From: Catajapyx aquilonaris
Taxonomy: Eukaryota
NCBI GenBank assembly: GCA_000934665.2
Contig: KZ538339.1
Coordinates: 62,001 to 85,791, forward strand
Direction of reading: 5' to 3'
DNA length: 23,791 nucleotides
Shown here in pieces: positions 3,134-20,737 of the stretch. Positions within the stretch are counted from its first letter, which is position 1. Every line of letters starts with the position of its first letter. The notes under the pieces were generated by a model. It saw only the letters and a list, made by a program, of their open reading frames with translations, searched no databases and was not told where the DNA came from. The position numbers and the translations under genes were made by a program.

Positions 3134-3246
3134 CAGGATGTATGTGTATAGTAAGTGTTAACAGGATGTATGTGTAGTGTGTGTTAACAGGATGTATGTG
3201 TAGAGTTGGCTCGCAGGATGTATGTAGTGTTCACAGGATGTATGTG
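3134..3246. repeat. Degenerate minisatellite with core CAGGATGTATGT, 5 copies
   Basis: Core starts at 3134, 3162, 3188, 3214 and 3234 (periods 28, 26, 26, 20). The linkers are related GT-rich sequences. Confidence 0.92.
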
Positions 3247-4614
3247 AAGAGTGTGTTTGTTCATGTCATTATTTTCATTATCATCAAGCTCACCTATATA
3301 CCTATTACATATACGTAGGCCTATATTATGTAATAAACACCAAATCAAAAGTCACATCGAACCACCTGGCAATCCTGCTTGCGTGCGTCCAATCACCATC
3401 CAGGTCTGATTGAGCCAGCGGGCTTTACCCTTCCAGCGTTGTGACATCGTGAGTCTATAAACACTAGTCCAAAGAAAAAGGAGGTCGAGCACTCTATAAA
3501 ACCTGCCTTGGAGATCGGCAGTAAGACCCACGTGGATGTCGTTCTTTCCTCTTTCTGCAGACGTATATAGAAAGGGCCATCGAGGGTCACGTGCATGACC
3601 CCCGGTATCTTCCGGGAGCTGAGGGCCAACGCATGTCGACTTTGCCAGAGCATAGCTTCGTATCGTGCCATTAAGCACTAGACTCCCTTTTATATACCCC
3701 TCCACCCCCACCCTTTCCCTTTACCCTTCTCCACATTCACAATAGCAACATTGCCAAGCCGCCTTTATCCGGGATATTGAATTCCCAATGGCGGGCATTT
3801 GCTAAATTGCGCCTCCTTTGGAAACACTCGGCGAAAGGAGGGTCCTGGTCGGGGGGAGGGAAGGGGGGGGGGCAGACTTGTGGAGAAAACCTCTCTGCCT
3901 CGGCCTCTAGAATAGAGAGAAAATGAATAAATCTACAGGAGGGTGCTTTTGAAAAGCGAAAGTGGATGTGTACGGTCATGATTCCCTGACTTCTCTCTAG
4001 GACCCCATATATTCACAAAAGCTGAAAAAAAAAATCTCCAAAAATTGATGATGGGTCCGGTGAGAGTGCACTTTGGTCAGCTCAAGAAAGCATCGGAATT
4101 AAATCCTGACCCTTGAAGAGGACGATGCTTATCAGGCCGGAGGTCAAGTTGAGAAAAGATGACCTCCTGGTAAAGTGGGTTCTAATTAATGAAAAGACCT
4201 CCCCACTTGTGCCGAGGCGTCAATAGATCTTTGATGATGCGGGTGCCAGACCAGGTAAATTTGCAATTAACGCCTGGTCCAGGGAAAGGAGAGGATGCTG
4301 CTGACATCCATTCACAAGCCCCCTCATCTAGTTTTCCTCCAGTTTTTTTTTGGTTCCTCTACAGTCCCTTGGCGTAGCACAGGGGGAAAGGATCCTCAGC
4401 TGCAGCCCACAAATTCCCAGTGTTAAATCATTACGTCTAGGTCGCAATTTGTTCGTCGCATCTGCGTCCCTTCTCTGAGGCACGTGCCTGCAGTTTCTCA
4501 AAGAATCTCTCCTGTTAGAATTATCCAGGGGTGGACTTTTTTTCTTGGAAAGAAACTTGTCTTTTCAAGTTTTGGAGGTCCTAAATTTTTCTTGTTTTAA
4601 TGGCAAATTGATCG

Positions 4615-7600: not shown

Positions 7601-10600
7601 GGTGAGGCAAAACTTTAGGATATCCACAGAATTCACTGGATGGAAATGTTTCGAATCCAATATGCACCAAAATTCTTAAGTCGGCAACGGCTGGTTTCTC
7701 GACATTTCTCGACTCTAGATTTCAGACTTGTAAAGGGCCAATCTGGCCATTGGCGGCGTGGTGATGAGTTCTGATTCACCCTGTGCGGTTGCTAGGGGAA
7801 AGGCCAGGCAAACGGCTGGCGATGGCTTTTCCTCCCCATGACTTGAGGCATTTTCTTCGTGGCGGTTGCATGGGGGACTGCTTTTGCGACTCTGCAGAAA
7901 GAGCCTAATGGGATTCGGCAGTCTCTCGGCAATGTCAACATTTAGTTGGGAAATAGCTCGAGGAAAGAACGAAAGAGCTGTGGTTGTGCAGCAGGTTGCG
8001 TGTGTAATTCCCCCCCTCCCCCCTTCCTTTCTTCCTCCTTCTTCGTCTCTTCTTTTTATTTCCTTTTTCGGTTTTTCGTCCCCTAGTTTTGCAGCTAAGC
8101 CAGGGAACGTGCGTTTCCTTCCGGTTTAACGAGGTGTTCACAACTGTCGTTAACCAGCGCCGGTATACAGAAGGATCATGTCTGCCGTTCCAGCCGGATT
8201 GCATTGCATTTATAACAACTGCGTAATTGAATGCAAACTAAAATTAAAGTTGACGCCGAATCAAATCTACGGGATCGAACTTTTTTGGGGTTGTCCAGAA
8301 TGGTGCGGGGGGAAAGAAAGGAAAAACACAGAAAGTGCAATAATCATAGCCATAAACCGTATAATGGATATTGAAGCTCTGGGCCATAATGGGAACTGGA
8401 ATAGCTTATCCAGGGGCTTGGGTTCTGTGTGCATTATTCCTCTCTAGTGATTCGCAGCATCCCCCGGCTGATTCGGCAGGCAGCCACTCCGAAAGCAATC
8501 AGGCCAAGTTCAAAGGCAGGCTATAAATTCTTAGGCTTTACGACAGGAGCTGAGAGGAGTGTGATAGGGCGCGACTAATATATGGCTAGAGCTAGGGGGG
8601 TCCTTCTTATCTGAAAACCAACTTTTTTTTTGATACAGAAATAACGGCAACATTTTCGACCTCCCCGAACAAATCGCGAGGACAATAGGTGAGAGGTTGT
8701 CGTTTATTTTTGTGGGGGTTGCTGTCACCGGGTGTCACAATCCCTGCTAAATAATGGCTGAGAAAGTGCCTACCTACTCTACAGATTGCTCAGACTAATT
8801 ACAACGCCATCATGACTGTTACATAGAAACCGTTCCACTTCCATAATATAGACAGTATTAATTCCGTTCCCAGTTCCAGCATGTACCAACCCCGGCATTG
8901 TCAAAGATGTTATATTTATTAGCTCTCCGGCTGTAAATAATTCCGCTCTAACATGGACTCGGAGAGTGTGCCCAGGTTTCAGACAGATTCTGGCGTTGAT
9001 TGGACCAGCGTTGGGAAGGAAATGGGTGCTGAAACATTCATGTCGGAGGTAGTCGGCGGGGGTCGGCCTCATTCCGTCCATTTGGAATGCAGGAGAAATT
9101 CCTAGGATGGTACTTTGCACTCGGCCTCCCCGTTCCTTCGTTTTTTGAAGGGGTGGTGGAGAGAAGGACTGGTGGAAGTTGAGATTCTCTCTACACTATT
9201 GCAAAACCTGGAGGGAAATCTGTTGCAAAATTCCGTCGTAATGATCGGTCGACCTGAGCCTGAGGGCGGCTTGCAAGAACGAAAGGAGAAGAAAAAATAT
9301 GCCGGAGAGATGAGTCTTCTTCAACTGCCGGAAGTCCATCGATCTTCACCTCTGCTAACCTTTGCCTCTTTTCTTCTTCTTTTTTTCCCCCCTTCCTCCG
9401 TTCCATATTGCTCCCAGAGTTCAAAGACAAGCGAGGATTCCCAGTCCTCATAGCTTCAAGGAGGATTTATTGATGAACTCCCGCAGTCCGGGCTCAATTC
9501 TCGTCCGCTTGAGATATTGCGACTATATCTCATTTCGGCGGGCAGGGGGTGGTGGGTGGGTGGGTCTGTTGATAGGCAGGGATAGTCAAATAGATTAAAC
9601 TGCTTTCCGCTGCATGGGTACTCCTGGCCTCCCCCCGAAATTTAATCCAAACTGCGTTTTGTTGGCAACAGAAGCCGGATAACGGGAACGGCAAATCAAT
9701 TCGAAGTCTAATCGAATTTATTGATTCCATATATTTTTTGTTTTGTTTTATCAGTTGTGCCAGTCCGTACCAGCCATGCTTCGTACTGACTTCACAATAC
9801 CAACAATGGCCATAGATAACAATTAAAGGATCATTGCGCACAATTACATGGCCTGTACCTTCTGAGCTGCCCTTTTGATCTCTTCTAACAAGGTTAAAAA
9901 TAAAAGGGGAAATAAGGTTAGAGCCCTTCTTTCTTGAGAGATAACCTTAGCATCCTTGCTAACTGCATGATCTCTATAGCAGCTATACTGCCACACGATT
10001 GTTACTTTCGCCAATTGGGTAAATCACTGATCAAATTGCTCATATGTAAACGGGGCCTGACTCGCAATAGGCAGGAGTGGGAATGCGCCTTTTAGGCCAC
10101 GCCCATTTCTCCCGCCAATTTGAGTGACTTTTAAGCACACGATAATAAATTATTGAGGAATGACATTTTGGTCCTGAAATGCGGAATGAGTGTGTTACTT
10201 GTGTACAATTTTCCCAAATCCCAGACCAAGGCTATGACCCTAATCCAATCAGAAGTTGATCAAATTAATTTTTGCCTATTGGCATCTTGCATCATTGACC
10301 TGCGTTACCTATCCGTAGGGTGGAGTGAGCATTGTTGATTTTTGTCATGTGTAGGAACTTAATTTCGACAGTGTTTCCCTTTGTGACCCTATATTGACGG
10401 ATCGGGGGGGTGATCTGAGCCACTTTGGGCTGAACTCAGCACCTTTCATCTTCCAAAAACCTGCCGTAAAACGTCCTCCCGTTGTAATTGGCCTATTAGG
10501 CACCTAACTCCCACATAGGGAGTGGGAAAAGGAGGAAGGGAGGAAGGACCAGCGCCTGCGATTGGCTGCAGGCAAATCGTCTAAACCCTTAACGACCTAG

Positions 10601-12511
10601 GTTGCAGAACAAGCCTTATAATCTACCCCAACCCGAGTTCCTTTACGGCGAGTCTGAACTTGGTACCAAGTTTTGCTGCGCAGAGCACTGAACTTTTTGC
10701 CTAATATTGATACTCAGGGTGGGAGGGGTTGGGTCGTGGGGAGAGTACATCACAGGCATCCATATTGTGCGTTTCTTAGGCAAAGGCAGGGCCTTCATCC
10801 ATATGCATGAGGTGGCTGAATGAGGTTCCAAGAAAGTCTTCATTGCCGTCGTTGCCTTTTGCTTAATTTACAGAAGGATTTTCGTCCGCCCCATTGTTCC
10901 CGTCATAAATTTTCCAAATGGGGCGCTGATAGAATCCCAAACGGCTCCCAGCAAGGCGAGTGAAGAGAGGAGAGGGGGTGGGGGGCGAGTGGGTGGGTGG
11001 GTGAAGAGAGGGCTTTATCTAGCCTTTGCATTTTGAACGCCCCAAATCCCCCCCTTCTCCTCTCTTCTCCAGCAACTTGGAAGGGAAGCTGCATCTCGAG
11101 TCCAGGGGAAAAGGGGGGGAGAAAGAGACAGTTTACCTGACAAGAGTCAAAGATGGCCGACCTTTCTTGCCACGTGCTCGTCGTAAAGTTTGTTGGAAGC
11201 TTCTTGTAATGGACTGCAGTTGGCGCTGAGATGCCACGCATGCTTTGAGGGTGGAATATGCATATTTCAAAATTTCGGATTCCAACGAGGCGACATCTCG
11301 ACGCCACATTATTCGTGACTGGCGCTATTCAACTCCACAAATGAGTTGCATGGACAGTAAATTAAGCCAACAAATATTTTTCAAACCAGCTGTTCATTTA
11401 CAGAGGCCTCCAACCATCTCCCTGAGAATGAGCGAGTCATGTGAAGCCCAAAGTTGGCAATTACGAGCCCGGAAAATCCGCGAAAATCGAGTAACAATAT
11501 CACAAAGAGAGGGAAAGTTTAGTCGAATTGGGATCTTGGCAACCAGAAGTTTAATTCTGGCAGGATTCAAACCAGCCCTTCAATTTACTTCCACTTCAGA
11601 TGTGAGTAATCGAGTTTAAAGCCGGTTTTGAGCTCGGAATGTGCTTCGTTTGGTGACTGTGCGGAGAAGCTGCAGTTATTAATATTGGCGCAGAGTTATG
11701 GAAGAAGTTGAAGAAAAAAAAATACCGGTCCATTTTTTTTTGCATCCCAAGGGCGGATGAATCCCTGGGCTCTCTGAGGAAGAAGTAATTGGCTTCTTTG
11801 GCGAAATGGCGTCCAAGTCCCCGTGCCTTTTCGCCGAAAAGTCTTTGGCTCGGCCCGACTTGAGCACAATGCTGCATTTCCGAATCAGCAAACGGGCCAA
11901 AATTAATTAGATTTGTCCTCAAATAAGAAGAGCGAGGGCCGGGAGAGAGAAATCATGGATGCAAATGAGATGCATAATTTATGCTGGTCATGTGTCACAT
12001 GCAAACTCCTGGCGGTCGTTATGGGTGGGAGGGAAAAAGGGGGAGGTGGAGGGTTTCCAACCCCTGTGACTACCCATTTATCTCAAGGATGGAAGTTTAA
12101 TCACGATTATTAGACTAGGGGGCTCGCCACTCGGCATCTGTCCTAACGTGTGCGGGGGGATATATACACACAGTGTATATAGCCCGGAAAAGAGGGGGGT
12201 GGGGGAGAGAGAATCCGGGTTCACGGAATTAATTTTGGCCACCAGAAGTCGAGCCCCGATGTGACATCTTTGCCCCTGCTTTTCAATTTATGGCCGCTGG
12301 AGAACCAGACAGAGGGGCAGGTGACACGTGGCGTTGGAAGAGAGATCCGTAATTACTATATAGGAAAAGGGGGGAAATTTTGGGAGTACTAAAAGTTATC
12401 GCGGAAAATGTTTTCTTCCTTGTGCAGCCGTCCAATAAATTATTCTGGGAAGGGGTTTAAATTCGATATGGAAATGTCTGGCTTGTTACTAATCCGGTTT
12501 TGGGTTTGGAA

Positions 12512-12549
12512 CTAATTTGCGATTTCTCTCTCTTTTTTTGCAGGTGAGT
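12512..12549 (+). promoter_or_regulatory. Candidate recursive splice site (ratchet point): 3' splice site directly abutting a 5' splice site
   Basis: Branch-point-like CTAAT (12512-12516), pyrimidine tract TTTCTCTCTCTTTTTTT (12523-12539), GCAG ending at 12543, then consensus donor GTGAGT (12544-12549). Confidence 0.72.
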
Positions 12550-12585
12550 TTGTTCTCAATTTGGGTCTGCGCACTCGAGTGGAGC
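12544..12585 (+). other. Candidate 42-nt cryptic RS-exon/microexon following the ratchet point
   Basis: Bounded by the acceptor AG at 12542-12543 and donor GTAAGT at 12586-12591. The length is a multiple of 3. It is open in two phases (VSLFSIWVCALEWS; xEFVLNLGLRTRVE) and has an immediate TGA in the third. Confidence 0.6.
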
Positions 12586-14886
12586 GTAAGTACTCTCTGA
12601 ATTAAGCCGTATGCGAAACGTTGAATTACAGGGCCTAATGGTAATTGCCTGGAAGATTGCGATGCTGCAGGTTTAACTGCAAAACTTTTTATTTACTAAC
12701 GGATTAACATCACTTTTACTCGCAGAAATTGATTAGGTATCTACAATGGTTAACCAGACTTTATAACTAATTAAACCTGCACCAATATCAATCAATTTGC
12801 ATATAATATACCCATCACATTTGCACACGTTGTTATATAATTTAATTGCAATTGTGGTAATGTATGGAACACTAATATGGAATAGCCCGAGGGAATATTA
12901 TTATCCTGGCTTCCACGCAACCCTTGCTGCACTGTTGTTCACCACGCTGCCTACAACTCAGGGGCTACTTTTTTCCTGCGACAATGTTCTCTCCTTGTCT
13001 CTCTGACTCCTTTGGTTCCTCCAGGGAGAGGAAATAACAGCGCTCATTTTTCACTAGTCACCTTGGCGCCTATTTTCCAAACGAAGTCATGATGTGGGTC
13101 GTTACTCAGCTCGGAAACGAAGCTTGGCATCGTGTTCCATATGCCAGAGGGGGTGGTGGTGCTGCTGCTACCAGGAGAGAAAAAGGAAGTCTGAGACAGA
13201 AAAAAAATATGAGAAGAATAAAGGAACAGAGAGGAAGATCTTGCGCAAAAATGGTGCAAAAACACCTACTCAATGTCCTGAGGGCTGGAGCCTTATTTTC
13301 ATCTGGCTCAATTACAGCGTGGCATCTCAGGTAGAATAGGGTGAGGAATTATGTTGCTGCTGCATCCATTATCTCAGGCCTGGATGTCACTTCGACCCGA
13401 CCTTTCTCACTGCGAAAAGGTGGCGGTGTTGCCAGCTGCACATTTTGCACTGACACGATGTCGCCAATTCTTGAACTCACTTCATGGCAGCTCAGAAAAA
13501 GAGGGCACGAGCTCTTAGAAAGCCCTCCATTTTTCTTCCCTCCTTTTCTTTATAATTTTCCGGCGGCCTAGTCAACCCCCGAGGGACACTTTGCGCAATG
13601 ACTAATAATTAGGTGAAGAAAATGCGGGCCAAAAGTGGGCGAAGCCCATCATCACACTTTGATCGCCATCACGCACTCGCTCAGACCCCCTTCTTCCTAT
13701 TTTTTTTGCGGCCTGGGAAGAAGGAAGATGGGGGGAAGTAAGTGGGTAGCTACATAAGACTGAAGCCAAGGGAGGGTTCTTTATAGTTTTGGGGTGGAAA
13801 AGGAAGGGAGGGCCAAAGAAGGGGACTTGCCCGGGAGCAAATTGCGTCTTCTTTGCTTATGAAGAGCCCTGGGGAATGAAGTAGAGGTGGTAAGGAAAAG
13901 GGGGTGAAATTCTTGCTGCTTCCTTCATCAAAGTTTCAAGCCGCCAAAAACCTCCAAAGGAGCCGCCATATTAAAGCAATTAGGATCACGCCTTCACACC
14001 GGGATAGATAAACTTGCGAATAAAGACACGCTGGTGAGAACTAGCAACAATTTTCGGGTGCTGCTGGGGAGCAACACTTGTGATTCATCATGTGACTCAT
14101 AATTCGATTAAGGCGACAGAAAGGGGTGGGATTCACCTCCCTGGGCCCAATCGATTGATCTGCATAAATGGGGACAAATTGGGGGAGTGGATAGGGTCAT
14201 TGTTGGGGAAAGAGGGGAGATGGGTAAGTTCACAGCTTCGCACGTGGATTCGATAAAAAAAAGAGGAGACACAAACACGCTGTTGGAGATGCTGAGGGCT
14301 CCTCTAAGGAAGGCCATTTGCTTGGATCACTAACTCTCAACAGACATTCCTCTTAATGAAGTTTGCTTAGGATCAGAGGAGCAGACTGGCATTAAGCGGA
14401 CGTCTCTTTGTTGTCATCTCTCACGCACATTTGTGTTACACTTGCGATAAACCAATTTATGAAACATACAGTATAGAGCGATGCAAATGAAGGTGAGTTG
14501 GTCCTGCCATCTTTCGAGTCTCCCTCTGAAGCTAGGAGGGGCCTGATCGTTAAAAATGCAATTCTTAGTCAAGTGCTGGGCAATTCCTGGGGCTGATGAA
14601 TGGCAGACGGGAGGAAACGTGACGTGATAAGAGATGGTGTGGGGGAGCCCTGCCGGAACACAAAAGAAAATTCTGTGGCCACTTACTTCCTCCAACACTT
14701 TCCTGCTGCTCCCAAGGAAAAAAAATTTAAAGCGGAATTTTTTTAAGACAAGAGCCCTGCGGTTTCTGAGATTTTTTTGAAAGTGTCCGTGACTGATTTG
14801 GCCGCGACGTTTGAAGGCAGACGTTTAGTTAGGTTGGAAAGATGGAGACGTGTCCCAAAGGTCTCCTTGCAAAAGCCAGAGAAAGA

Positions 14887-14945
14887 TGGTATAGGTCAGG
14901 GCACGTGGCAGACTGCGAACTAAAAGAGCTCTTGGCTCGACCTCC
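14887..14945 (+). mobile_element. Possible highly decayed tRNA-derived SINE head
   Basis: TGGTATAGG...CAGACTGCGAA...GAGCTCTTGGCTCGACCTCC follows the order of the intact SINE head TGGTGTAGG...CAGACTGCTAA...GAGGTCCTGGGATCAAATCC. No body, tail or TSD was found. Confidence 0.3.
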
Positions 14946-17900
14946 GCTCCGAAAATGAACGGAAGGCCAACCGGAACATTTGGGACCAATCAAAGGCGCG
15001 CCTTGTTCGCGACGGAGACTAATTAAGTTGGCTCAACTCTTCTTAATCAATTGAGGACTGAAAAGGAGGAAAGGAAAGCTCCCGGTATTGAATCGACACT
15101 CGTCCCTTACTCGCATTAAAGCTGACTTCTCCCTTGTCTATCTCTCGATTCTCATGAACGTAGCAACTGGCTGCTGGAGTGAACAATCTTTGGACAGTAG
15201 ACAAACCTGAAACTGGACTCAAAAATAGTATGAAAAATATCTGTATTGGCCCATCGAAATTGGGCATACATACACTGTGTTGTTGCCGGAAGCATCTGTA
15301 GAGAATGTGAGATTGTAAACAAATAAAAAATTCATATGCACAGTAATCAGCCTCGATGTACAATGCGGAGTTCAGGGTATTGTGTACGGCACAACGCTGT
15401 TTTGGCGAAATCGATGAAAGAATCTTTTCGAAAAAACAAAATAATGAAATATTGAATTGAATTCGTATTATACTTCATCGATCATGCAAACACTGTAGGC
15501 TATGGGCGTTATCTGAAATTGTGCAATGAGTTTTCTATCGGTAATCATTTTGCGTATTGTTCAGTGGAGAGCATATTTTTACTCTGATGGGAATAGGTTT
15601 TGTACTTCTAACGGGCACTTAACAGTTGCCCATATTTTAAAATAAGAACACGTTTTATTTACAAATGAGAGCATAGTTACTAATACGATAATCTTTGAAT
15701 TTCTACTCTCACATTGCCCAATTGCATGAAGGAAAATTCCGCTCTTCATGACATGTGATTAAAGCTTTTCTCTACATTTTAGTTGATAAAACTGGCTCTT
15801 AGCGTGTTGCAGCAAACACACTCTAGAATGGGCCAAGTTTTATCAGCTAATGCCTTAAAAGCTGACTACTTATCTGCAGTATGCTAACACCACTAGAGTG
15901 AAGTTGCGAGCTTGTTTTATGGGTAAAGTCTAACTGCGATATGTCTGAAGAGCCCCCCGTGTTGAGGAGATTCTAATGAGCTCTTACATCCGGTTTCATT
16001 ATTTATGAATCTAGTAAAAGCAACAAACTATATGAAGTTCACTAGAAGCACGATGGAAATTTTCATGCTCGTTTTGTGTCGACTGACATGCCCGCTTTTC
16101 TGGAGTATAAAAAAGAGGGGGGGGGGATGTAACGAGAGCGCATTCTACAAGCAACTTTGTGTAAGTAACTATTCAGAAAACTCAAAAGTTAACCATTACT
16201 TATTAAGCAAAAAAGTATAAAATGCTGCCGAGAGAAAACTTTTCAACCGCGTTTCCTCCCTTCAAAAAAATACGTGATGGCGGGGAAAAAAACTTTTCTT
16301 CTCCTCCCAACATATTATGAAGGCCCCCGGAATTGGAAACCGAAAAGCTGAACGATTTTATCCCCCAAGCCTTAGTCTGTGATTTTGGGCGGTGGTTTCA
16401 ACTAAGTAGTCATTCTTCTCATCGCGACCTGTCCTCAGGTAAAATTGCTTCAACTTTTTTTTTGCCCCCCCCCCCTTCCCCACGCCATCGGGGGGGATTT
16501 AATTTTCGCGTGGCCTCATTCTTTCTTCGCATGCGAATGACTTGCATGAGGCTTCAGAAGATTTCCCCCCCTCACCATCCTATTGGTCGGATACTCCCAA
16601 AAAAACGAAGAAGTTTTGAGAGAAAAGGGCCATTTTTTTTTTTGCAAAGTTAGTTGGATCGATGAAGGCGGCCCAAAGTAGTCCGTAGGAACAATAGCTT
16701 GTTCTCAATATCGCCTATTGGGAAAGCCTTTTTTTTCCTAGGGAAAGAAAGGCACGTTGGAATTACATATTGACAGATCGGAAGCCATTTTTTCATCCAT
16801 AATTCATGGTCATTTCATATCCCCCGAAACCGGCTCAGTTTTTTTTCCCTCTCCCGATCTAAATTATTCACTCCCAAGTACAAATCAACGTTTTAAATGA
16901 CACGTTTTGGCAAAATGTGGGTCAACACTTTTTATTTCAAACGTCGCTTAATGGGAGCAAGCCTGGAGTTTTCTATAGCCAACTAATTGGGTACAATCCT
17001 CCGACTTGATAGTCTATTCTCAGGAGATCAATTACACTTTAATAACGTTCTAATGTCTCGTTCCTTTCTCTTGCTCCCCCCCCCCCTCCGTATTCAATCC
17101 GTCCCATTTGGCTCTACGTATATATAGTCCCGACTCCGGGAGTGAATCCGGACTAATGAAAGTCACCTCCGGACTGCCTAATCTATAGTCCTCCCTCACC
17201 CTCTCTTCGCACTAGCCAAATTGAACTACTCGGCAGCAGCAGAGAGCAAGGGGCCACAATAGGGGGGTATACCCAACCTCTACACCTCGTCTCCATTACG
17301 AAACCCATTTCCATCAGTCCAAGGCAACTCTGGCTACTCCACTCAAGCAGAGGGTGTGTTTGCGTTCCTTTGGCAATTCTCTCCGAGTTGGCGATAATTA
17401 CTTTCCAGGGGGGAGGTGCTGGAAGCAAAACAACAAGACTGAAGCACTCGCCCTCAGGCTGGATGTAACATTTTTTGGAACACCCGGTACTTTTCAAGAA
17501 ATTCTTTCAACCTAATCAGAATTAGGCCTTTTTCTCATCGAATAAAAGGCTTATATAGAACTGCTTTGTCCGTCTGTCTGTGTGGTTGTATCGCATCGGG
17601 TTTGTCAACCTCATTTCCCACTGCCCCATGAGAAAAAAAGTCTACTCGAATCACTCTCGCGTGATCTTGTTTTCAGTGGATTAGCGCAACGACTGAACCG
17701 GATTTAAGCTTTCAGTTTACCCACCTTGTGATTACAAGTCCATTAACTGACCATTAAGGTATGGATTGACCCGTGCAGGTCACCGGATATCCGTATTGAC
17801 AACCTGCCAAGAACTGGGGGGGAAAGGGAACTCGGAATTTGGCCAGGCAATGAGAGGAAACCCTTCTTGTGAGTAAAGGGGAGGAAAAAAAAAGCAAACC

Positions 17901-20020: not shown

Positions 20021-20737
20021 ATGGACGTGAATAATAACTTGTGTATGTATCAAGTCAATAATTCGATTAGTCCAAACATCAATAAATTGTAGGTAACCGA
20101 AGCAGGTTGGTGTAGGGGTTAAGGAGCCAGACTGCTAATCGGGAGGTCCTGGGATCAAATCCCCGGGCCGGCAACTCTGACCGTGGTTTTCTGTGGTTTC
20201 CCACGGTCCCTCCAGGAAAATTCCGGAGTTGTTTCCGTAATTAACAGGCCACAGCCGCTTTCTTCCTTCCCTATCCCTTCCCAAAAAGCGAAGCAAAAAG
20301 TAAAAAGACAAGAGTTCCTGACAAAAAAAAATTGGGATGAACTCCCCCCCTAAGAGAGCCAATGGCTCTATCACGGGGTAAATTATTATTATTATATTAT
20401 TAAAAAAATTGTAGGTAGAAATTTTCTGATGAAATAAATATGAACCTATATTTTAACTGGCGGCACTTAAAAGACGAGTTTTATTTATTTCCCTAGACGA
20501 ATGGTCGCCATTGCGATATATATACGTAGTTCAAATGTTTGAGTTTTCAATTTTTTATGCTGTAGTTTTTCCACTCATATTGCAGTTTTGACTCGTCAGC
20601 ATAGTAGCCCACATGGATTCATAATTCAAACCCATTTCTCTTTGTAAGCACGTAATAAAACTTAATAGTGCAGGGAATTGTGTTTGGAAAGGACGGCAAA
20701 CAAAAGGAGCAAATAAACGAATTAATGCAATTTTTTG
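20021..20737 (-). repeat. Right arm of the long inverted repeat, interrupted by a SINE at 20096-20405
   Basis: Same blocks as the left arm. Similarity resumes on the far side of the SINE: ATTAGTCCAAACATCAATAAATTGTAG vs left-arm reverse complement ATTAGTGCAAGTATAACTAACTTGTAG, and TGGACGTGAATAATAACTT vs TGGACATGGGCAGTAACTT. Confidence 0.88.
20096..20405 (+). mobile_element. Full-length tRNA-derived SINE (~310 bp) with 12-bp target-site duplication
   Basis: Pol III A-box-like TGGTGTAGGGG (20108-20118) and B-box-like GGATCAAATCC (20152-20162). The body GGTTTTCTGTGGTTTCCC...CCAGGAAAATTCCGG...GGCCACAGCCGCTTTCTTCC resembles, from recall, the core of Lm1/Talua-type insect SINEs. There is a 3' stem-loop AGAGCC-AAT-GGCTCT (20355-20369) and an (ATT)n/A tail (~20381-20405). 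The exact TSD AAATTGTAGGTA lies at 20084-20095 and 20406-20417. Confidence 0.93.

Follow-up and report, generated by a model that had tools for sequence, protein, structure and literature searches.

Introduction

Ratchet points with cryptic recursive splicing exons (RS-exons) are said to have been described in Drosophila by Hatton in 1998, Burnette in 2005, and Joseph in 2018, and RS-exons of vertebrates reportedly by Sibley in 2015 and Blazquez in 2018. Here, we analyze a candidate element of this kind in the genome of Catajapyx aquilonaris (Eukaryota). It lies in a stretch of 23,791 nucleotides (NCBI GenBank assembly GCA_000934665.2, contig KZ538339.1, positions 62,001 to 85,791 of the forward strand), which we refer to as the window and number from its first base. 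An acceptor on the + strand directly abuts a donor motif at 12543/12544, and another donor motif follows 42 nt further on. On balance, we lean toward reading this arrangement as a used recursive splice site, with either a cryptic or an expressed RS-exon, within a long intron; the host gene would be on the + strand, with its exons located outside the window.

Recursive splicing is best described in the fruit fly. According to the sections of the review by Joseph & Lai (2021; PMC8605326) that deal with these elements, a fly ratchet point pairs an acceptor with a donor in tandem; upward of 500 sites are intronic, and expressed RS-exons number fewer than 50. The RS-exons are approximately 50 nt long and are closed by a donor of their own, and the donor that is regenerated at the splice junction is usually stronger than the donor of the RS-exon (PMC8605326). 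In the parts of the preprint by Duff and colleagues (10.1101/006163) that describe the sequence of these sites, T was reported at both -5 and -6 in 196 of 197 fly ratchet points, compared with 43.76% of all introns, and the polypyrimidine tract was more prominent than usual. The removed intron segments averaged 17,953 bp and ranged from 2,596 to 63,580 bp (10.1101/006163). Among the 539 sites in Table S1 of Pai et al. 2018, TTGCAG|GT was the commonest form; TTGCAGGT occurs 128 times, AGGTGAGT 51 times, and AGGTAAGT 37 times.

Outside of flies, most of what is available concerns the density of motifs. In the tabulated results of Shepard et al. 2009 (PMC2773006), fused sites were counted per 100 kb in introns longer than 50 kb, on the sense versus the complementary strand. 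The densities were 2.196 versus 0.101 in the fruit fly, 1.029 versus 0 in the mosquito, 0.807 versus 0.101 in the beetle, 0.484 versus 0.122 in the bee, and 0.540 versus 0.066 in the sea urchin (PMC2773006). Vertebrates had about 0.1 on either strand, with ratios of 0.9-1.5, i.e., no enrichment (PMC2773006). The same paper cites the "zero-length exons" of Grellscheid & Smith 2006. A 2024 preprint (10.1101/2024.12.11.627982) states, in the portion concerned with prior work, that recursive splicing has been identified in "fruit flies, mice, and humans." For the locust gene NPF1, the relevant part of one report (PMC8892266) describes a predicted recursive site with support from a U2AF65 pull-down, which is indirect. 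In open-access full-text word searches, which were not exhaustive, we found neither other experimental support in non-dipteran arthropods besides the locust nor junction-level proof outside flies and vertebrates. One bee paper (PMC8553928) brings up recursive splicing, in the text concerned with it, solely to rule it out for an exon of 3 nt.

Anatomy of the site

The acceptor is GCAG at 12540-12543 on the + strand, with its AG at 12542-12543, and directly abuts GTGAGT at 12544-12549. This second motif is the putative ratchet-point donor, as it would be regenerated if an upstream exon were joined to 12544. Immediately upstream of the acceptor is a pure polypyrimidine tract of 17 nt (TTTCTCTCTCTTTTTTT, 12523-12539) that ends in seven T residues, so that T occupies both -5 and -6 (12538-12539). 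A proximal CTAAT at 12512-12516 is the likely branch point by prediction; its branch A at 12515 lies 28 nt before the last intron base at 12543, a spacing within the usual range. A distal CTAAT at 12489-12493 can be read as a second branch-point-like motif; its branch A would be 12492, at a distance of 51 nt from the acceptor G. CTAAT is frequent in the window, with 39 copies on the + strand and 22 on the - strand, and it carries little weight on its own. The 89 nt before the acceptor AG (12453-12541) are free of AG, the previous one being at 12451-12452. For comparison, gaps between successive AGs on the + strand of the window average 16.9 nt, and 17 of 1405 reach at least 85 nt.

Exactly 42 nt after the start of GTGAGT, a GTAAGT at 12586-12591 in the context AGC|GTAAGTAC provides the putative donor of an RS-exon at 12544-12585. 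The unit thus enclosed is 3 x 14 nt long; frames 1 and 3 are open, and frame 2 has a TGA at bases 2-4. The ratchet-point donor would read xxx|GTGAGTTT, where xxx stands for the last bases of the upstream exon, and has a G at +3. The donor at 12586 reads AGC|GTAAGTAC; it could pair from +1 to +7, and its exon side is mismatched, with C at -1 and G at -2.

An earlier note on this DNA had listed two CTAAT copies, a 17-nt pyrimidine tract, CAG|GTGAGT, and a GTAAGT 42 nt downstream, and every one of these motifs is present on the + strand where it was reported. The T residues at -5 and -6 and the 89-nt AG-free zone come in addition to that list, and both fit a working acceptor. The predicted RNA fold of 12470-12620 is ordinary (z = +0.96), as 169 of 200 shuffled sequences folded equally well or better.

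Rarity against chance

Relaxed scans of both strands found this to be the only consensus-grade fused site in the window. The runners-up have weak donors: CAG|GTAAAA at 16439 on the + strand and CAG|GTAAAC at 11136 on the - strand. A search for Y8-N-YAG|GTRAGT with at most one mismatch returned a single match across both strands, against 0.10 expected; of 100 shuffled sequences, 10 contained one or more matches. Bare AGGTRAGT, by itself, occurs at expectation, with two matches versus 1.28 expected. In Markov simulations of the window, a YAG|GTRAGT behind a strong pyrimidine tract appeared in 19 of 4000 windows with an order-1 model and in 21 of 4000 with an order-3 model. When the same fused motif was combined with a GTRAGT donor 25-80 nt downstream, none of the 4000 windows simulated with each model contained it.

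These Markov models understate the pyrimidine runs of the window, in which runs of at least 12 nt number 84, compared with 39 in simulation. Consequently, we also give a semi-empirical estimate, in which the number of pseudo-acceptors in the window (15 by a strict and 67 by a loose definition) is multiplied by motif frequencies taken from the same DNA. By this estimate, the chance per window of a fused site is 0.005-0.034, falling to between 8e-5 and 1e-3 with the second donor and to between 1e-5 and 2e-4 with a CTRAY in range as well. The background of approximately 0.1 per 100 kb per strand published by Shepard et al. in the tabulated part of their work (PMC2773006) corresponds to approximately 0.05 per window and agrees with the looser end of the semi-empirical estimate. 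Long pure pyrimidine or purine runs are in excess throughout the window: there are 34 of at least 17 nt, against 3.4 under the order-3 Markov model, and 48 of at least 15 nt, against 9, many of them rich in C or G.

The 19-mer that spans the junction served as a negative control. It was found at 40 metagenome loci, representing 29 distinct contexts, and none of the 40 matched the window past the 19-mer seed, the longest alignment being 44 nt at 82%. At these control loci, a pyrimidine run of at least 12 nt was present in 0 of 40, a downstream donor in 0 of 40, and a CTRAY in 6 of 40.

The constellation is unlikely to be accidental within any single window. Across very many scanned windows, a few accidental constellations are still expected, and rare ones will turn up somewhere. 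One rival reading is a chance constellation with no function in splicing, at a locus that is intergenic or antisense to any transcript. The excess of pyrimidine runs provides tracts, pseudo-acceptors are plentiful (31 on the + strand and 36 on the - strand), bare AGGTRAGT occurs about as often as expected, a looser fused site is expected 0.02-0.03 times per window, close to the published background, and a host gene was not found in the window. The full constellation, by contrast, is expected only 1e-5 to 1e-3 times per window. It brings together a top-grade acceptor with T at both -5 and -6, an upstream zone of 89 nt without AG, a CTAAT at -28, a GTRAGT that fits the consensus perfectly, and another, equally perfect donor at a distance typical of RS-exons. 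These five parts share one strand and stand in functional order. We consider chance an unlikely explanation, if one to be taken seriously. From the published ratios of sense to complementary strand, a good invertebrate site is several-fold to 20-fold likelier to be selected than to belong to the background, and these odds rise further when the branch point and the downstream donor are taken into account.

Proposed mechanism

From the observed anatomy of the site and its rarity against chance, we infer a transcribed strand, a host gene, and a series of RNA steps. U2AF and U2 would recognize the acceptor through the predicted branch point around 12515, the pyrimidine tract of 17 nt, and the AG itself (12542-12543). 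Binding of U1 at the GTAAGT at 12586 would then define the 42-nt unit as an exon. The upstream exon would be ligated to 12544, with the first intron segment leaving as a lariat, and the new junction would restore a donor that consists of the exon end followed by GTGAGT. This restored donor would compete with the donor at 12586 (AGC|GTAAGTAC). If the restored donor were to win, the 42 nt would be removed with the next intron segment and leave no trace in the mRNA. If the donor at 12586 were to win, 14 codons would be kept, or a stop introduced in one frame. The ends of upstream exons commonly supply AG to the restored donor. Because of this, and because the exon side of the 12586 donor is mismatched, the restored donor would probably win and the 42 nt would probably be absent from the mRNA.

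The length of the unit bears on which kind of RS-exon this might be. The pertinent section of Joseph & Lai (PMC8605326) calls the cryptic RS-exons of flies "generally out of frame," whereas the 42-nt unit keeps the frame. This difference lowers the standing of the cryptic subtype, and the word "generally" leaves room for exceptions. A unit that keeps the frame and is open in two frames leans, on its sequence features, to the rarer, expressed subtype as in Ubx, without deciding the matter. The boldest version of this would be a working fly-type ratchet point outside flies, mice, and humans, the species with RNA evidence of recursive splicing, with a 42-nt RS-exon that some cells keep as a 14-codon microexon through competition between the regenerated GTGAGT and the GTAAGT donor, and hence a Ubx-style regulated switch in an unrelated long gene; we regard this version as a long shot.

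The same properties would also suit a short exon of the ordinary kind in a + strand transcript that has not been annotated, whether a 14-codon microexon or an exon of an untranslated region or a long noncoding RNA, with no recursion involved. The leading GTGAGT would then be a coincidence, or would be silenced after splicing, e.g., by the exon junction complex (EJC). A length divisible by three and two open frames are what such an exon could show, and an upstream partner may be available in the possible donor GAT|GTGAGTAA at 11602, 942 nt before the acceptor. There is precedent as well. In mammals, the number of expressed exons with a donor-like start is given, in the passage on this topic, as "potentially >6,400," as opposed to nine fully suppressed intronic sites (PMC8605326), and the EJC was described to repress re-splicing of donor-like exon starts in the pertinent part of another report (PMC6224609). 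However, a GTRAGT start by coincidence would be rare, since the motif occurs at 3-5e-4 per position here. The 23.8 kb contain no neighboring coding exon or Pfam signal, and a strong pyrimidine tract with TT at -5/-6 is the reported signature of ratchet points and not of the average intron. An ordinary exon is improbable in our view.

Finally, the motifs could serve another purpose altogether, as an enhancer site of the E-box type, a U1-binding element, or a trans-splicing element. CAGGTG, a putative E-box, is present inside GCAGGTGAG, and there are many TAAT-type motifs around the site. In addition, flies are known to have an intronic motif that binds U1 and promotes trans-splicing, as described in part of PMC4387717. 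These functions leave the pyrimidine tract, the zone free of AG, the branch-point motifs, and the downstream donor unexplained; no RNA family matched, and the fold, as given above, is ordinary. We see this as a very remote explanation compared with recursive splicing.

Genomic surroundings

The earlier note had described the site as lying in apparently gene-free DNA, and our coding scan bears this out. We compared 98 of the 99 stop-to-stop open reading frames (ORFs) of at least 70 amino acids with Pfam, the omitted one being the ORF that spans the N at 631. No credible family was found in these 98 ORFs; two matches of 16.5 and 16.7 bits, below cut-offs of approximately 25, were taken as noise. 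The absence of recognizable coding sequence is consistent with DNA that is free of genes and may belong to a long intron. The flanks around the site are exon-free over 12.5 kb and 11.2 kb, which fits the sizes of the segments removed in flies. We also tried to assemble coding exons by naive pairing of pseudo-acceptors with GTRAG donors; this yielded 11 candidates on the + strand and 10 on the - strand, none of them coding-like, and the approach was set aside. In Rfam searches, there was no gathering-level match anywhere in the window and, within 12300-12800, none at E-values up to 1, and no tRNA genes were found in the window.

Strand signals were examined next to these searches. Counts on the + versus the - strand were 12 versus 3 for GTRAGT, 5 versus 0 for GGTRAGT, 103 versus 59 for CTRAY, and 19 versus 18 for AATAAA. 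The + strand has more G than C and more T than A (GC skew +0.038, TA skew +0.020), which is the sign seen on mammalian sense strands and is weak evidence for + strand transcription. The observed/expected ratio is 0.72 for CpG and 0.72 for TpA. As the signals were mixed, composition was rejected as a test of the transcribed strand.

Further splice-like sites are located on the + strand of the window. At 11575-11609, a near-miss ratchet point consists of a pyrimidine-rich stretch followed by TTCAG, AT, and GTGAGTAA, with acceptor and donor 2 nt apart; its GAT|GTGAGTAA at 11602 could just as well serve as donor for an exon whose last base is 11601, 942 nt before the acceptor at 12543. At 14480-14498, GCAAATGAAG|GTGAGT is the window's second AGGTGAGT. 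It has no preceding pyrimidine tract, an ATG stands two codons before the donor, and it may have arisen by chance or may close a first coding exon. A weaker fused site, TGTCCTCAG|GTAAAATT, is found at 16410-16445 behind a stretch with 15 pyrimidines in 20, 3.9 kb downstream of the main site.

Read support and repeats

A search of public sequencing runs turned up four DNA runs from a single study, from which the assembly may have been built, and one more run of the species, but no RNA run. Three of these five runs were compared with 20,000 of the window's 23,791 bases. Two of the DNA runs, possibly those behind the assembly, each have one contig of 7588 nt that covers 10076-17663 with one letter different. 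This match shows that the letters of the site are present in the reads. Depth at the site is at the single-copy level, approximately 30, versus 1e5 for a short interspersed element (SINE) at 20.1-20.4 kb. A further run of the species matches repeats only, at about 2617-2686, 10093-10211, and 20130-20276.

The SINE is tRNA-derived, lies on the + strand within 20084-20417, and is bounded by a 12-nt direct repeat, AAATTGTAGGTA, at 20084-20095 and 20406-20417. Its head is tRNA-like at 20102-20173, although the Rfam tRNA match (17.2 bits, E 0.58) is sub-threshold, and its tail is (ATT)n and A-rich. The depth of approximately 1e5, compared with approximately 30 for single-copy sequence, implies thousands of copies, and the element is abundant in the further run of the species too. 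Other dispersed repeats include 2045-2690, at approximately 100-fold the single-copy depth, as well as 10093-10211 and 17553-17665, both approximately 10-fold above it, with many contig breaks at the repeat edges. Two tandem arrays were noted. The first, at 307-466, has 6.8 copies of a 20-nt unit with 96% matches; the second, at 3134-3257, has 4.9 copies of a 26-nt unit with 74% matches, and a second read contig there shows substitutions and small indels that may be allelic. There is a single N at 631.

Discussion

Several observations weigh against a used recursive splice site at 12543/12544. The + orientation of the SINE at 20096-20405 is the one less favored inside + strand introns. No exon of a host gene is visible anywhere in the 23.8-kb window. 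The window is so rich in pyrimidine and purine runs (34 of at least 17 nt versus 3.4 simulated) that the tract alone is cheap. The RS-exon donor, GTAAGTA, is fuller than the GTGAGT of the ratchet point, and the dominance of the latter hinges on the last bases of the upstream exon. The 42-nt unit is 3 x 14 with two frames open, whereas fly cryptic RS-exons are, as quoted above from PMC8605326, generally out of frame. The - strand has slightly more acceptor-like motifs than the + strand (6 versus 12 for Y8NYAG on + and -, 31 versus 36 for pseudo-acceptors), the opposite of the sense-strand excess in Table 4 of Shepard et al. (PMC2773006). The absence of enrichment that the same paper gives for vertebrates would also count against this reading if the genome were vertebrate-like. 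The CpG ratio of 0.72, run sizes of about 254-257 million letters, which hint at a genome of roughly 250 Mb, and a SINE in thousands of copies point to a smallish animal genome that probably resembles neither those of vertebrates nor that of Drosophila.

The earlier note had proposed recursive splicing here and had added that it would be notable if the species was a non-dipteran arthropod. The first part of this proposal is partly supported, as the anatomy fits a ratchet point of the Drosophila type and a chance origin is unlikely. The second part was overstated, because enrichment in invertebrates was published in 2009. Given that enrichment in the bee, beetle, mosquito, and sea urchin, the site at most adds an example to a known type of element. 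If the site is used, it marks a very long intron that is unannotated, and it offers a natural test case, outside model organisms, for the RS-exon model in which exon definition is followed by competition between donors. It would also back, with proof at the level of junctions, a motif enrichment so far known only from computation in the bee, beetle, mosquito, and sea urchin. Even then, the concept would be unchanged, since recursive splicing, ratchet points, and RS-exons are already well described.

How does the site compare with the known systems? At the level of motifs, it has the features of the Drosophila type: a fused acceptor|donor, a pyrimidine tract with TT at -5/-6, a branch point with AG exclusion, and a unit of approximately 50 nt closed by a donor. 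It is like fly ratchet points in its (Y)nNCAG|GTRAGT fusion, in its strong tract, in the short donor-closed unit (42 nt versus approximately 50 nt), and in its long exon-free flanks. The frame differs: the 42-nt unit does not have the out-of-frame length of the Drosophila type and, unlike fly cryptic RS-exons in general, is in frame and open.

In that same respect, the site is close to the m1 and m2 microexons of Ubx, which are 51 nt long and are either included or removed by re-splicing. Like them, the putative exon is short, preserves the frame, and starts like a donor; here, the start is GTGAGT, the length 42 nt, and frames 1 and 3 are open. As the exon begins with a donor consensus, its inclusion would be set by competition between the regenerated donor and its own. 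The Ubx microexons are conserved over all 51 nt and seen in mRNA according to the section of PMC8605326 devoted to them, whereas the RS-exon here is predicted from sequence, and nothing ties the window to a particular gene.

The RP-site predictions of Shepard et al. 2009 and the locust NPF1 site, as presented in part of PMC8892266, are similar to the present case in that they stand at the motif level, outside Drosophila, ahead of junction-level RNA proof. Those predictions sit on the sense strand of annotated long introns, whereas the host intron here is deduced from the site itself. Vertebrate RS-exons share with the proposed mechanism an exon definition that comes first and a recursive 5' splice site that follows, as well as competition between donors and possible control by the EJC. 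However, vertebrate RS-exons are mostly annotated and included, and the long introns of vertebrates show no enrichment of fused sites. With its strong fly-like motif, the site in C. aquilonaris looks more like the invertebrate type of recursive splice site than the vertebrate one.

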